Origin: Octopus vulgaris
Lineage: Eukaryota
Direction of reading: 5' to 3'
DNA length: 64,000 bases
Assembly: GCA_951406725.2 (NCBI GenBank)
Contig: OX597821.1
Span: 45,074,001-45,138,000 of the forward strand
Positions 15,283 to 54,322 of the stretch are shown piece after piece. Numbering within the stretch: the first letter of the stretch is position 1; every line of letters starts with the position of its first letter. The translations under genes were made by a program, and so were the position numbers. The notes beneath the pieces are model-generated. The model was given only the letters and a program-made list of their open reading frames with translations, did not search any database and was not told the origin of the DNA.

Positions 15283-15947
15283 CATAATACTGAAAAAATA
15301 TTTTTAGAACGTCATACGAAGGTAAAAAAAAACATAGTTTTTTTTTTTTTTTCCAAAGTTTACTTTTTTCTACATACAAAAATTGATGTATCTATGTGAA
15401 ACGCTGGTCATATGTAAGGTACAAAAAAGCAAAATTTTATTTGACAATACGGAACAAAACCAAATAAATGAAATCAAAGCAATAAACAATCGAAACAGTA
15501 AAACTAAGACTGCATAACATATCTTTGTTTATGTGAGTTTAGTTTTATATTGTATGGAAATCAGTTAAACATTTAACATGGACACCGTCTTTACATTTAG
15601 TACAACTCGTGGGAGTCATGTTGTGGCAGTGACGATATCTCAGTATTTTTTTTTATCTGGTATGAATGCAGCAATTTTTATCTTGTAATTTTCATCACAA
15701 ATCATAACAAATAATTGTTTCCTTATATATATATATATATATATAAGAGACACCCATTTATGTATTCAATATATTTATACTATATATATATATATATATA
15801 TATAGTAGTAACAGAAAAGAAGAATTTCGATTATCCCCACGTGGTGAGTTGTAATCTATATAAGAAATTAAAAAAGGAAAATACGCACACTTACATGGTT
15901 TTAATATATATATATATATATCAAAATAAGCAACAAGAATGACTCCG

Positions 15948-16042
15948 GTAATTTGGTACGATCGTTTCGTACTACATCATTTTATTAAATGTTGTAAGTA
16001 TTACAACAGATTTAAGATGCTGAGTACTCATCAGCCAATTAT
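15948..16042 (-). ncRNA. Type I hammerhead ribozyme (mirror copy of 16394-16488)
   Basis: Reverse complement of the right-arm ribozyme. TCATCAG at 16028-16034. Confidence 0.85.
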
Positions 16043-16393
16043 AGAGGTTTTCCATTAATACAAAAATTTTCAAATCAAGTGGCAACATTATAGAGAAGGT
16101 AGATATATAGACCGTAGTGGTAAGTAATCCATCTAATCTTTCGGATAAATTCATTGGTTCTGTGGATCAACAGCCATATGTATTCGTCCTTACTGTATAA
16201 GGGGATATCCTTTGGGGAAAACTCTATATTTACCTTTTTCATCCTTAAGGACGAATACATATGGCTGTTGATCCACAGAACCAATGAATTTATCCGAAGG
16301 ATTATGGATTACTTACCACTACGGTCTATATGTCTACCTTCTCTATAATGTTGTCACTTGATTTGAAAATTTTTGTATTAATGGAAAACCTCT

Positions 16394-16488
16394 ATAATTG
16401 GCTGATGAGTACTCAGCATCTTAAATCTGTTGTAATACTTACAACATTTAATAAAATGATGTAGTACGAAACGATCGTACCAAATTAC
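16394..16488 (+). ncRNA. Type I hammerhead ribozyme, canonical core
   Basis: Stem I UAAUUGG/CCAAAUUA. CUGAUGA 16402-16408. Stem II GUACU/AGUAC capped by a long hairpin. GAAA 16468-16471, palindromic CGAUCG, GUA triplet (cut after 16479). Confidence 0.85.
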
Positions 16489-16619
16489 CGGAGTCATTCT
16501 TGTTGCTTATTTTGATTATAATCACCCTACGGATTTTTATGGATAACACCATACAGAATTCTGGTGCGTCTAAATTAAGTACCATATTTATTTGAATCTA
16601 AATATTTGCTGAGCTTATT

Positions 16620-16820: not shown

Positions 16821-16939
16821 ATATATATATATATATATATATAGTAGTAACAGAAAAGAAGAATTTCGATTATCCCCACGTGGTGAGTTGTAATGTATAT
16901 GAGAAATTAAAAAAGGAAAATACGCACACTTACAAAGTT

Positions 16940-16985
<46 letters not shown>

Positions 16986-22561: not shown

Positions 22562-24905
<2,344 letters not shown>

Positions 24906-29209: not shown

Positions 29210-30234
29210 TCAAAATAAGCAACAATAATATCTTCGGTAATTTGGTGCGATCGTTTCAGGCTACATCATTTTATTAAACATTGTAATATTACAACAGTTT
29301 TAAAATGTTGAGCAATCATCAGCCATTTATAGAGGTTTTCCATTAATACATATTTTCATATTAATTGATAACATTATAAAGAAGGTAGATATATAGACAG
29401 AGATGTCGATTTGAATTTTAAGAACATCAAGGTAATAGAATTTATCTTCTGACTGAAGAATATTCTTTTAGTTATTTTGAACTGCTAGAAGGTGGGGAAG
29501 TATATTCAGTTGAATGGAGACAAAAGAGGTTTTCTATTTATAGAAGTAAGGGTGAAATAAATGTCAGAAGTTATTTCTAAAGAAATTAAAGTAGAAATGG
29601 GAATATTATGCATTAGATGTTGTTTATTGCTATTTGGCAAACAGATTTTGTATCAAGAAAACTAGGTCAATGCTAGATGGTCACAATGACCATCTATATA
29701 CCAAAAAGTTATAGAGAATACAGAGATTCCTTTACACTTATATACATCAGCTTTATACTTAGCTAGTAGGTGTTGATTATTCTGATACGTTGGATTAAAG
29801 GAGAAATTATAAATCTAATATTTAATTTTGGAGAAAAATCTATCATTTATTATGAGTAGGCATAATACTCAATAACTGTGGACAAAAGTCTTATTAATAA
29901 AATGATTATATATATTAGAAAAATGGAAGAGGAGTAATCAAGATGAGTAATTTTCTTAGGTTTAGTAGAAGGTGATTCATTTTTAGGAAGAGAAGTAATA
30001 AAGAAGAGTAAATGGCTGATGATTGCTCAACATTTTAAAACTGTTGTAATACTTACAATGTTTAATAAAATGATGTAGCGTGAAACGATCGTACCAAATT
30101 ACCGAAGATATTCTTGTTGCTTATTTTAATTATAATCACCCCCATGGATTTATAAGGATAACACCATACAAAATTCTGGTGCATCTAACTTAAGTACCAT
30201 ATTCATTTGAATCTAAATTTTGCTGAACTTATAA

Positions 30235-31025: not shown

Positions 31026-31117
<92 letters not shown>

Positions 31118-31156
31118 GAAAGAAGGTTTGAAAATGCAATTGTAAAAGATGTTTAT

Positions 31157-31202
31157 TTACTTTACCGGTTTCACATGTTTAGAAAAAGATTGTCAAAAGT
31201 AA
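31157..31202 (-). ncRNA. Hammerhead ribozyme, U3-A8 core variant (left arm)
   Basis: Minus strand UUACUU-UUGACAA-...-GAAA-CCGG-UA-AAGUAA. Perfect stem I, weak stem II. Confidence 0.55.
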
Positions 31203-32072
31203 CATGTAGAAGTTTGGTTGTGTTAGGTACTGGTTGTCACAAAATATTACAATATATATATACATTCTTTGATACACCTACACACACATAATATCCCCAC
31301 CAACACAAAATACACAAGAATACACACGCACCCATAGATGCCCACATACACACATACAGACACTAGCGCACACACAACACACTAACAAACATTAACCACA
31401 CACATACACACACACAAACGGGCACACATATACACACACCATCCTACCAAATTTTAAAAACACACACAGACACATCTATTTACACCACAATAAACTCTGG
31501 GACCAATCAAAAACGACCCACACACACAAACACAAACACATGTATATATATATACACACATACAAAGACATACCCACTCACACCATTCTGACCTCTAAAA
31601 CCAATCCCCCAAATCATCGATACTTGAAAGAGAAACAAAAAACTTCTTTTCAATTCCACATTACTCTTCCTTCCCCCCACCCAAACACACCTACACTGTC
31701 CCTTGAAATAAAAAAATAGTCTTTTACGATAACATGGTGAATCAGGTCAGTTAAAACTACCCTACTACTAAAATGTAAACTTTTTTGAACTTATAATATT
31801 CTGTGTATATATATATACAGATACAATGCCAATATTCCACTGAACTTTTTGATTATTCTTTCTGGAAATGTCTTTAACATTTTCTTAAAAATGTATATAT
31901 ATATTGTAATCTTTTGTGCCCAATATTTTAATGAACTTGTTAAACTTTTTTATATTTTCCCAAGATTTTCCCTTGTAAACTGTTCTTAACATGTTCTTAT
32001 TATCAAATAATATATATATATTTTATAATATTTTGTGACAACCAGTAACTAACACAACCAAGCTTTTACATG

Positions 32073-32118
32073 TTACCTTTGACAATCTTTTTCTAAAAAA
32101 GGGAAACCGGTAAAGTAA
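32073..32118 (+). ncRNA. Hammerhead ribozyme, U3-A8 core variant (right arm)
   Basis: UUACCU, UUGACAA (32079-32085), stem II UCUUUUU/AAAAAGG, GAAA (32103-32106), CCGG, UA, AAGUAA. Confidence 0.6.
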
Positions 32119-32199
32119 ATAAACATCTTTTAAAATTGCATTTTCAAACCTTCTTTCATATATAATTCCACTCGTGCGGTACCTTACAACTCCACTTTG

Positions 32200-32745: not shown

Positions 32746-33537
32746 GTTAATAAATTACAGCAGTCAATTTACCGGTTAGAGAACATTTTTTTATTATAAT
32801 ATTATTTAAAATTGAATAAGGGTAGAAATTGATATTAATCAATTAAAACCAGTGGCCTAGCATATTAGAAAAATCCGAAGATTAAAATATTTTTTACATA
32901 CAAAATTTAAAGGACTGACCACTAAAAGTGGACAGTCAATATGTTAGATATAGACGTCAAAATCGCTATTAGCATAGTGATCAGTCCTTTAAATTTTGTA
33001 TGTAGAAAATATTTTAATCTTCGGATTTTTTTAATATGCTAGGCCACTGGTTTTAATTGATTAATATCAATTTCTACCCTTATTTAATTTTAAATAATAA
33101 TAAAAAAATGTTCTCTAACCGGTAAATTGACTGCTGTAATTTATTAACTGCAGAGTAGATTTCCGATCTCAGCGCGCCAAAGTGAAGGCATTTGAATGAT
33201 ACACATAAATATAATTTGTTGAACTATATGCGTGCGGGATTTCGGTCAAGCATTCTATATCTAGTTCTGGAAATTGTATTTGTAAACGACAGACTATGCT
33301 GATGATCTTGCAGATGCTCGCGTATACATATACGTGAATATTAACAAGTGAAACTAATTAGTACATAGGTAATCGTTTTTTGTTTCGTATATTTTCATTT
33401 GTCTTGCTTATTTTTTACACTTTGGTTTTTTGCTGAGTTTTTTCTTGAGAACACATTCTTCGTGGAAAATAACGATTTTGACGTCTATATCTAGCATATT
33501 GACTGTTCACTTTTAGTGGTCAGTCCTTTAAATTTTG

Positions 33538-33540
<3 letters not shown>
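32746..33540. mobile_element. Retrozyme-like element, family 3: inverted arm 32746-32965 plus a slightly over-unit-length ~539-nt monomer 32975-33540
   Basis: TAGTG(A/G)TCAGTCCTTTAAATTTTGTAT at 32975 and 33514. The inverted arm reads across that junction. One hammerhead, no ORF, ends in (TA)n. Confidence 0.8.
33294..33368 (+). ncRNA. Type I hammerhead ribozyme, canonical core
   Basis: Stem I CUAUG/CAUAG. CUGAUGA 33299-33305. Stem II (U)CUUG/CAAG(U). GAAA 33350-33353, palindromic CUAAUUAG, GUA (cut after 33363). Confidence 0.85.
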
Positions 33541-33610
<70 letters not shown>

Positions 33611-34079: not shown

Positions 34080-34320
34080 ATAGATTTAAATGTTGCCACC
34101 ACCTATTAAATATACTTAAATATGACTACCACCTGTTAGATTTAAATGCAGCTACTACCAATTAAGTCTGCCTTCTGTTAGAATTCTATGGCTGCCTTCT
34201 ATTAGAATTAAATGTGGATACACATTATTAAATGAATTTAAATGTGGCTACCACCTATTAAAGATATCTGACTGTGACCACCACCGGTTAGACTGATTTA
34301 AATGCGGCAACCACTAATTA
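34080..34320 (+). repeat. Degenerate minisatellite (ATTTAAATGTGGCTACCACCTATTA-like units)
   Basis: About 7-8 diverged copies, by eye. Confidence 0.75.
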
Positions 34321-35785
34321 CGACTTTAACAATTATTTGGATTGTCTGCATTTGCCTATGTTCCCGCCCATCTCACATTCGACGGTGGCAAATCTAACCC
34401 TCTCTAATGTTTAGATAAAAGAGCCATTCTAGGAATATCTCCGAAAGTATTTCCCGATGTGTAGAAGTGTTCCGTCCTATCGAGATATCGACATAAAAAA
34501 AAAGAAAAAAATGTCTGTCACAGATGAAAGAAGCAAGAGGAAAATAAAAGAAAGATTAAATGGGAGGGAGGAGGTAGTGTGAGGAATAGGGGGAAGAATT
34601 AAAAAAATGAAAAAAAGTTTATTGATGCTAGAGGGTGAGGAAATTCCAAGAATAATGATGAATCGTCCTAATATCTGCGGCTGTGATCTGTTTGTGTAAA
34701 ATGTGACGTACGACATACAGGGATGTGGTGTGTGGAGTGGTGTAGTGAAGTGTCATGTCACCGATGGGGAGGGTGCTAACAGAAATATTAGGGTAGGGAC
34801 AACATGAAAGGATGGTATGGAGATATATTGAAAGATGAAAGATGACGGAGAGACACAGACCTCACTACGTTGCCCATAAAACTATTTAAATCAGCATCAT
34901 CGTCGTCGTCGTCGTCAGCAGCAGCAGCAACAGCAGCAGCAGTAGCAGCAGCAGCAGCATTATCGGTAACAAGAGCGATAGCAGTTTTGCTGTATTTCTA
35001 TCCATAAATAGTAAATATTTAGTTGGAAAGAAAGCTCAGTCGCATTTCAAGAGGGGAAGGAAACAAATCGCTACAGACATGTGTTCTCTTATCTTAATTC
35101 TCAGACTGAATCAGCGTGAAGCAATGTGTGATAAAGACCGTGCTTTTCAATTACGGGTACAATCCATTCGACGAGCAACCCTAGTTTCCGTCTACTCGAC
35201 GTCACCCACAAGATACAAATCGATCCGAAGAATTGGTTAAAGACATTTGCCCAAGATGCCACGCAGTGGAATCAAACTGAGGATCTTGAGCTACTTATCA
35301 ACTAAATTTACTGGAGAGAAAGACAGTTATCAGACAATTATCAACACTGTCATTAGTTATGTTGCCTTAGTATATGGTGTGAATAACCGTCTTATTAGCA
35401 TATGTCAATAAGTACCGTATTAACATATATCAATAAGTACATTATTAACAGATTCCGTTCTTTTTATTAGCAACAGTCTAATTTATATCTTTAGCAGTAA
35501 TTGAAACCTGTCCCTTGACACGTCAAAATTTTAGGGAGCCTCAATGCTCCCCATATGGCAATGTGAGCAGGGGGTTGAATTACCTCACACTAAGGTACTT
35601 GAAGGTGAAAGAATCACAGCATTAGAGGGAGAACTGAAGACAAATTATCCAGAAATCCACGTTAGGTGCCACAAAAGACGTGAAGTTGTATAGAAGCAAT
35701 TTAATTCCATCAGATGAAAACAGTTCCTCGTCTATTCTGTTGATGAGGCATCTGGGTTGAAAATAACTTCATCTTTTCCTCTCGC

Positions 35786-51580: not shown

Positions 51581-51628
51581 ATTTTTGATAAGGTTCGTTT
51601 TTTCAAGAAGAACCGAAACATGTAAAAT
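51581..51628 (+). ncRNA. Type I hammerhead ribozyme, U3-A8 core variant
   Basis: Stem I AUUU/AAAU. UUGAUAA 51585-51591. Stem II GGUUC/GAACC. GAAA 51615-51618, palindromic CAUG, GUA (cut after 51624). Downstream ATTTTCAAAC(C)TTCTTT is shared with the 32.1 kb element. Confidence 0.7.
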
Positions 51629-53289: not shown

Positions 53290-54230
53290 AAAATTCACTA
53301 AACGCCAGAACGTAAGCGAGCAAGACAAACGGAAAGATACAAAATAAAATGATTAATCACAAACCCGGTTTCATTGTTACCACTTACGTAATGCTTATGT
53401 AAATGTCCGCAATTCATCAGTGTGATCGTCATTGCAAAATATAAATTGAAGAACTATACACGAGACGTCCGCATGAGATTGAACATGCATATAGTTCTAC
53501 CAATTACATTTGGGATTTATTTCAAAAATCTTCGTTTTGGCGCGCCAAAATGTGGGAAAAGATTCTGCAGAAAATAATTCTCTGCGGAGAATTTTGCCGG
53601 TTTGAGAACATGGTTATTTAAATTTAAATAATAAGGGTGAGAAATTGAATATTAATTTGATTAATATCAATTTAAAGCCAGTGACCTAGCAGACTGAAAA
53701 ATCTGAAGATTCAGAAAAATTATATTACATACATATAAGGGGGATGACCACAAAGTGGACGTCCATTATACTAGAGTTAGACCCCATATGGTCTGACCAC
53801 TAAGAAAAGATTGTTCTCAAGAATATTCAGCAAACGCCAGAACGTAAGCGAGCAAGGCAAATGAATATAAAGATTAATCACAAACCCGGTTTCATTGTTA
53901 CTACTTACGTAAATGTCCGCAATTAATCTTTAATTAATCTTTATATTTTGTATCTTTATATGTTTTATCTTTATATTCATTTGTCTTGTTCGCTTACGTT
54001 CTGGTGTTTGCTGAATTTTCTTGAGAACAATCTTTGGTGTTCTGGTGTTCTTGAGAACAATCTTTTCTTAATGGTCAGACCATATTGGGTCTACTTCTAG
54101 CATAATGGATGTCTACTTAGTGGTCATCCCTCTTATATGTATGTAATATAATTTTTCTAAATCTTCAGATTTTTCAATATGCTAGGCCACTGGTTTTAAA
54201 TTGATATTAAATTAATATTCAATTTTTCAC

Positions 54231-54235
<5 letters not shown>
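53290..54235. mobile_element. Retrozyme-like element, family 3: ~1.2 tandem monomers (period 532) on the minus strand plus an inverted arm ~53926-54235
   Basis: AAACGCCAGAACGTAAGCGAGCAAG at 53300 and 53832. Shares ATATGCTAGGCCACTGGTTTTAA, GCGCGCCAAA and TTTCTTGAGAACA with 32746-33540. Ends in (TA)n. Confidence 0.85.
53356..53426 (-). ncRNA. Type I hammerhead ribozyme, canonical core
   Basis: Minus strand AUCACA, CUGAUGA (53420-53414), AUUG...CAAU, GAAA, CCGG, GUU, UGUGAU. Perfect 6-bp stem I. The second tandem copy (~53877-53924) is truncated at the core. Confidence 0.85.

Positions 54236-54322
<87 letters not shown>

Follow-up and report, generated by a model that had tools for sequence, protein, structure and literature searches.

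A family of 539-nt hammerhead repeats in the octopus genome with the insertion anatomy of Penelope-like elements

Introduction

A stretch of 64,000 nt from the genome of Octopus vulgaris (GenBank assembly GCA_951406725.2, contig OX597821.1, positions 45,074,001 to 45,138,000; here called the window) contains a non-coding unit with a hammerhead motif, a short repeat at its two ends and an inverted copy of part of the unit on its left side. The locus raises the question of how such a unit was copied into the genome and from what kind of template. An earlier note on the window had read it as a retrozyme-like circular RNA of ∼540 nt, reverse-transcribed slightly more than once around, with a partial tandem of the pLTR of a Penelope-like element (PLE) as the alternative.

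A case has been made for regarding animal retrozymes as non-autonomous PLEs (Li, Clavereau and Pollet 2026, bioRxiv 10.64898/2026.07.22.740005), and the reverse transcription of retrozyme circles by PLE enzymes is a published hypothesis, stated without demonstration in the accessible parts of that preprint and of PMC7229834. PLEs are known to carry a one-sided tail of 30-40 bp (PMC8557442, PMC3846280), which in a lizard PLE in vitro lies between two internal start sites of reverse transcription (Frangieh et al. 2024, PMC11167929); the enzyme is predicted to be dimeric (PMC11167929). The formation of the tandem and inverted ends of PLEs is called open in PMC8557442 and PMC11167929, as far as their accessible text goes.

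Results

The copy in the window

The unit of the window (Table 1) is 539 nt long, and its longest ATG-led frames, with the unit read as a circle, comprise 24 aa on the plus strand and 29 aa on the minus strand, in agreement with the ∼539-nt non-coding monomer described in the earlier note. Its folding is strong, with a z of -7.0 and 0 of 100 shuffles equally stable. In an alignment-derived structure, 24 of 31 variable pairs still pair and 7 are broken, the structure being fitted to the same alignment. The 27-mers starting at 32975 and 33514 had been taken as the same; the repeat is present, with 26 of 27 positions identical (blastn self-match of 30 nt, 93%, E 1e-8). The reverse complement of 32746-32970 forms an unbroken alignment to the unit, with ∼95% identity and one 5-nt indel, which bears out the continuity of the left arm over the unit junction. 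The outer end of this arm, at unit position 174, adjoins a SINE-like repeat whose last ∼17 nt are absent; the usual continuation of that repeat is visible as loose ends in sequencing-run contigs. Contigs of four runs, three presumed to be of RNA and one of unspecified type, cover most of the unit, contigs being blind to ends, strand and circles.

Elsewhere in the window, a 276-aa open frame resembles a fragment of a non-LTR reverse transcriptase (23794-24624, minus strand), and degenerate ∼30-nt tandem repeats lie at 34084-34325.

Table 1. Features of the window copy and of related families (window positions unless a contig is given)
Feature	Position	Strand	Remarks
539-nt unit	32975-33513	+	30.6% GC, non-coding, strongly structured
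Inverted 5' arm	32746-32970	-	unit positions 494 to 539/1 to 174
Tail, internal in the window copy	33002-33096	+	from site A (unit ∼27-30) to site B (unit ∼114-122)
Type I hammerhead motif	33294-33368	+	motif scan and covariation
Stem I of the hammerhead	33294-98/33364-68	+	
Core CUGAUGA	33299-305	+	followed by a long stem II
GAAA	33350-53	+	
Palindromic stem III	33353-62	+	
Terminal redundancy ending at site A	33514-33540	+	blastn self-match, sequence comparison
(TA)n target microsatellite	33541-33609	no strand	sequence
Sister family 2 copy	53300-54236	-	own hammerhead at 53420; inverted arm ends at site B
Family 4 examples	contig C1:33099436-33105572 (L349), C1:71597367-71603405		from loci L349-L388

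The hammerhead motif

The single hammerhead that had been noted is recovered as a type I motif with a predicted cut at 33363/33364. Rfam gives zero matches on the window at the gathering score, and relaxing the threshold to E≤10 brings up no hammerhead family either, so that the assignment rests on our own motif scan and on covariation. Six sub-threshold Rfam matches near the element, none of them a hammerhead, were put down to chance. Core positions are conserved at 92-99% in a sample of the family partly selected for an intact core. At pair 345/362 of stem II, 104 instances have TA and 44 have CG, and at pair 381/386 of stem III, 111 have TA and 17 have CG; these counts ignore phylogenetic kinship and come from related copies rather than independent events. 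The variants of stem III remain self-complementary, with a pairing probability of 0.003 within one molecule and -8 to -13 kcal/mol for the self-duplex. These properties fit the dimeric hammerheads of amphibian retrozymes as described in the accessible part of PMC7229834.

With one hammerhead, the window copy cannot release a unit-length monomer or circle and would therefore be offspring, not source. The earlier note had proposed to look for religation junctions at the cut; since the genomic DNA is contiguous there, such a search does not discriminate.

Copies and ends in the genome

The unit belongs to a dispersed 539-nt repeat, here called family 1, in a microsatellite-rich genome of 2.8 Gb. 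A search with the unit gives 3257 first-look candidates, 40 of which were scored and show 88-93% identity. Two exact-pattern searches give 112 and 254 matches with 0 in controls, the 112 being those of the exact hammerhead pattern. Pooling of the best-hit and pattern searches leads to 238 loci, corresponding to 198 distinct insertions.

The outward-facing 3' ends (n=272) fall on two fixed sites ∼92 nt apart in 237 cases. Site A (unit 17-49, mode 30) accounts for 123 of them and site B (unit 104-135, mode 122) for 114, while the other 35 ends are located elsewhere. Repeats of the TA type abut 218 of the 237 ends at A or B, compared to 11 of the 35 other ends. The 5' ends are scattered round the whole unit without a wall, at ∼0.6% stop per base. 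The random permutation points considered in the earlier note thus hold for the 5' ends and not for the 3' ends, which are fixed. Because the length of the redundancy is set by the scattered 5' end relative to the fixed 3' end, it has no meaning by itself; the 27-nt redundancy was accordingly rejected as a fixed hallmark. A unit boundary at site B, hinted at by indels there, was also rejected, there being no excess of 5' ends in that bin (1 of 27 at risk). The window copy is an ordinary inactive member of family 1.

Arms align well past the cut site in 75 of 81 cases. A pile-up of 5' ends at the cut, nominally 6 of 81 within 3 nt (p 0.02), was rejected: two of these extend upstream as a stem III variant, two are ambiguous, and the two exact ones left are not significant. 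This count bears on a template in the form of a linear monomer cut by the hammerhead, with stem I keeping its two ends in contact and the enzyme jumping the nick repeatedly and precisely. Such a template would leave arms stopping at the cut, as 2 of 81 do exactly and 2 more within 4 nt, besides L186, L009 and the second arm of L273 outside the set; it also agrees with the long-range helices that close the unit around the hammerhead in the alignment-derived structure. Against it, 1-2 such arms are expected anyway, and the excess is not significant.

Arms longer than 545 nt number 51 of 287, the longest measuring 994 nt, and two full units occur in none of the 287. Two hammerhead positions are spanned by 4 of these arms, with both cores intact in 1 of the 4. 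The absence of multimers may be due to lower processivity or to later collapse.

Head-to-head insertions, with an inverted 5' copy, make up 75 of the 198. One end lies at neither site in 25 of the 75, the window copy included. In the remaining 50, each end lies at one of the two sites: 48 combine A with B, 2 show A twice and 0 show B twice (p 1e-12 versus random pairing); merging L220, L256 and L270, which have common flanks and represent one triplicated locus, leaves 46 of 48 as A+B.

Relationship to Penelope-like elements

The earlier note had named usual attachment of the copies to an RT/GIY-YIG ORF as speaking against its reading. No family 1 copy stands as a pLTR behind an ORF at any of 191 loci (flanks of 0.5-1.5 kb). 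Fragments of PLEs are hit in the flanks of 11 of the 191, and all 11 map as separate or nested elements, none of them after the end of an ORF; L204 abuts the middle of a PLE ORF1.

Intact PLEs are present in the genome, with a 781-aa RT and GIY-YIG ORF; they terminate in (TA)n, their two ends lying 38 nt from each other, and have minimal palindromic hammerheads. A minimal hammerhead with the core UUGAUAA is carried by this 781-aa family and by a related end within the window (window position 51585; L092, L095, L098 and L108). This core is a U3/A8 swap of the usual C3/G8 pair. In L091-L094 and L109, the elements are intact and near-identical and carry an extra ORF upstream of the 781-aa ORF, as well as a CxxxxCxxC linker, which we take to be typical of the Neptune clade. 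Another PLE-type end lies close to the window copy, with inverted arms at 31111-31274 and 32001-32164, a ∼37-nt tail on one side and a variant hammerhead core, UUGACAA, at 32079.

An autonomous PLE with the sequence of the unit is absent among the 50 GIY-YIG loci that were read, 150 of 6136 candidates having been scored. No pLTR homology to the unit is found in L061-L110, where short hits are nested copies. These results bear on the reading of the copies as 5'-truncated solo pLTRs of an ordinary autonomous PLE, a reading already largely refuted and regarded as very improbable. The PLE anatomy, the active PLEs of the genome, the position of L204 and the scored share of the GIY-YIG candidates leave it some room. 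On the other side, long arms run into another unit and never into an ORF, none of the 191 loci is contiguous with an ORF end, and families 1 and 2 (see below) both keep a ∼540-nt unit at 74% identity.

Family 1 shows scattered 5' truncation, partial tandems, an inverted head-to-head copy, a one-sided tail and a (TA)n target. This is the full insertion anatomy of PLEs, with no copy at the 191 loci serving as the pLTR of an RT gene, and family 1 is therefore very probably a non-autonomous PLE, a monomer derivative of the retrozyme type. It is filed as a non-autonomous PLE because the tests for two hammerheads (active retrozyme) and for an ORF (autonomous PLE) both turned out negative. In its workings, family 1 resembles a non-LTR retrozyme, and in its construction a PLE insertion. 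The interpretation in the earlier note is thus partly supported, its two readings not being alternatives.

Sister families

Family 2, recognised from its copy in the window (Table 1), has a unit of ∼535-541 nt with 74% identity to family 1 over 512 aligned positions. Among pairs classable by eye in 30 of its loci, 8 are A+B and 2 A+A.

Family 4, reached via the neighbour of one family 2 locus, is young and has units of 544-565 nt. Its hammerhead pattern is matched exactly 1753 times, and its arrays, in which consecutive units each have a complete hammerhead, extend to as many as 12 units. A direct neighbour one unit away is seen by eye in 44 of the first 100 listed matches, compared to 1 of 100 for family 1. 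Only its tail motif is shared with family 1, at 74% over 54 nt with E 0.014, and the whole-unit score is no better than the best of 100 shuffles. The 40 loci sampled belong to the highest-scoring and thus longest matches; 2 duplicates among them were left out of the divergence figures. All 27 head-to-head insertions combine A with B. Sequences diverge by 0.22% inside one arm, by 0.33% from arm to arm and by 2.3% from one insertion to another. Where an allele is private to one insertion, in the sense of private within this sample, every unit that covers the site carries it at 26 of 29 sites, and both arms have it at 12 of 13; the 37 internally uniform arrays show 30 haplotypes. All 180 junctions read have the same length without an indel, and each has A or U immediately ahead of the cut. 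The nicked linear monomer discussed above predicts the same repeated alleles, whereas the uniform, indel-free junctions argue against it, and it is considered improbable.

Mosaic sites number 15 in the arrays of family 4. Repeats with a period of 2, 3 or 4 units are observed in L353, L355, L356, L357, L359, L364 and L350, as alleles and in L364 also as a deletion. By eye, the phase of the mosaic alleles between the arms fails in L350 and L384, which indicates that exchange after insertion is real; the periodic mosaics were for this reason not accepted as proof of multimeric circles. They reflect either multimeric circles or block duplication after insertion. Another reading holds that redundancy and arrays arose altogether at the DNA level once the element had inserted, through gene conversion and duplication in place. 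The mosaics, partly out of phase between arms, and the near-identical arms of L240 and L287 in family 1, which look converted, are in line with it. Such an origin leaves unexplained both the A+B pairing and the seamless unit junctions in hundreds of independent insertions, and fixed private sites outnumber intermediate ones; as a full explanation it is highly unlikely.

Family 3 is represented by a head-to-head element at window 15921-16618 with a hammerhead on each arm (16034, minus strand; 16402, plus strand) and a ∼100-nt one-sided tail. Its hammerhead is the same as in L098. A stretch of ∼115 nt lies on both sides of the element (15795-15910 and 16835-16950), and an older copy is located near 30010-30230. 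In L139:1432-1836 (oriented), family 3 sequence passes without a gap into an arm of family 1 shortly ahead of the hammerhead, possibly by a template switch between the two families.

Discussion

The template of family 1 and its relatives

The near-strict A+B pairing, the arrays of family 4 and the recurrence of private alleles in all units and on both arms together support priming of both target strands on a unit-length, probably circular, RNA. Taken as a whole chain, the model that a unit-length RNA, probably a circle, is the template and that the family would be copied in trans by a Penelope-type RT/endonuclease is judged to have somewhat better than even prospects. In family 1, where a stretch occurs twice in an arm, its two instances have rare alleles in common at 26 of 331 sites (7.9%), compared to 1.4% between copies of the same subfamily. 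Opposite arms have them in common at 59 of 426 sites, or 36 of 402 without L240 and L287. Homogenisation after insertion accounts for part of the overall pattern.

The main rival to a circular template is uncleaved linear RNA. The element would be the same non-autonomous PLE, copied from read-through transcripts of tandem loci with intermolecular template switches, while the hammerhead acts elsewhere and no circle is formed. In the work on the lizard PLE, as far as PMC11167929 is accessible, uncleaved RNA is the dominant substrate in vitro, the start site shows no difference from strand to strand, hammerhead mutants are without effect on in vitro insertion and no in vivo reads end at the cut, all of which weighs against the circular model. 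So does family 1 itself, none of whose 287 arms attains two full units, as do the 25 of 75 head-to-head insertions with one end at neither site, the out-of-phase mosaics of L350 and L384 and the lack of a matching autonomous PLE among the 50 GIY-YIG loci. The cleanest evidence for circles, moreover, comes from family 4, whose likeness to family 1 is limited to the tail motif. A homogeneous parent array outside the sample could moreover hand 'private' alleles to all units. Linear read-through is harder to reconcile with the lack of a fixed 5' boundary and with the rare alleles, which are found in the two redundant instances together ∼6 times as often as in pairs of relatives. The 30 distinct haplotypes of the uniform family 4 arrays and the excess of fixed private sites (26) over mosaic shared sites (15) likewise count against it, and both indicate frequent passage through a single unit. 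The linear template is therefore rated as unlikely, though less so than the nicked monomer.

Proposed mechanism

For the unit-length, probably circular template, the following sequence of steps is proposed. A rare source locus with two hammerheads would be transcribed, and the two ribozymes would pair via their palindromic stems III and excise a single unit, which a host ligase may close into a circle. The enzyme would then nick both strands of a (TA)n target, priming one of them at site A within the unit and its counterpart at site B. Each cDNA would run backwards round the template to a random stop, redundancy arising where it passes one round. Finally, the two cDNA ends would be joined head to head, or a single arm would be linked to flanking DNA. 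On this scheme, the copy in the window would be dead offspring. The most specific form of the model, in which ribozyme-made RNA circles of ∼540 nt serve a dimeric Penelope enzyme that primes both (TA)n-cut strands at two fixed sites of one circle and rolls round it, at times on dimer-to-tetramer circles, is tentative and falls a little short of an even chance.

In L1 twin priming, both target strands prime on the RNA, which gives rise to an inverted 5' arm. Unlike in that process, the primers of family 1 stand at fixed sites and the arms overlap in the template, so that strand displacement or two templates are needed.

Comparison with known elements

Family 1 has several features in common with the non-LTR retrozymes of animals (PMC7229834; bioRxiv 10.64898/2026.07.22.740005): it is non-coding, low in GC and equipped with a type I hammerhead, its units are arranged head to tail, its RNA is predicted to be strongly self-paired, it co-occurs with PLEs, and its short stem III is expected to need dimers. 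Its coding capacity and GC content lie within the retrozyme definition (no coding capacity, GC <45%). Two or more successive units that each carry an entire hammerhead, the mark of an active retrozyme, are found in family 4, whereas the window copy has one hammerhead and family 1 yields 0 full dimers in the sample. The 539-nt unit is larger than the 170-400 nt of demonstrated retrozyme circles and within the range of 51-972 bp given by Li et al. The fixed 3' sites, the inverted arms and the (TA)n targeting of family 1 are without counterpart in the accessible parts of these two retrozyme accounts.

With the endonuclease-bearing PLEs (Craig et al. 2021, PMC8557442; PMC3846280; PMC11167929), family 1 shares 5' truncation, partial tandems, the inverted 5' copy, the tail at one end, the hammerhead upstream of two internal start sites and AT-rich or (TA)n targets. 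In contrast to them, it has no ORF, its tail measures ∼92-98 nt instead of 30-40, the whole unit rather than a pLTR is repeated, and it shows no match to the pLTRs of the sampled PLE families. The non-autonomous Chlamys elements, for example MRC1 (PMC8557442), are likewise non-autonomous PLEs with multicopy head-to-tail insertions, but, unlike family 1, resemble the 3' ends of their partners. PLEs with an N-terminal endonuclease are described as being without canonical hammerheads in the accessible text of PMC8557442, and the term 'ribozyme' is absent from that of PMC13282606. No description of these families or count of tail pairing was found in the literature; supplements, Repbase, Dfam and subscription papers could hold some.

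Significance

Family 1 is a known kind of element, useful for testing mechanism. The new part is that head-to-head insertions use one site per side in a near-strict manner (46 of 48 in family 1 and 27 of 27 in family 4), with old and very young families of one genome obeying the same rule. If copied by a Penelope-type enzyme, as is likely, the copies would be a genomic record of how such enzymes prime. For the in vitro PLE assay, this predicts one product per site per event, and products of more than one unit on circular RNA. Family 4, being young and high in copy number, is the best target for the detection of circular RNA. If the model is true, the one-sided tail, the partial tandem and the inversion of PLEs would be explained as one event, and these insertions would be the first case in which a genome preserves the rolling-circle retrotransposition of a circular RNA from an animal.
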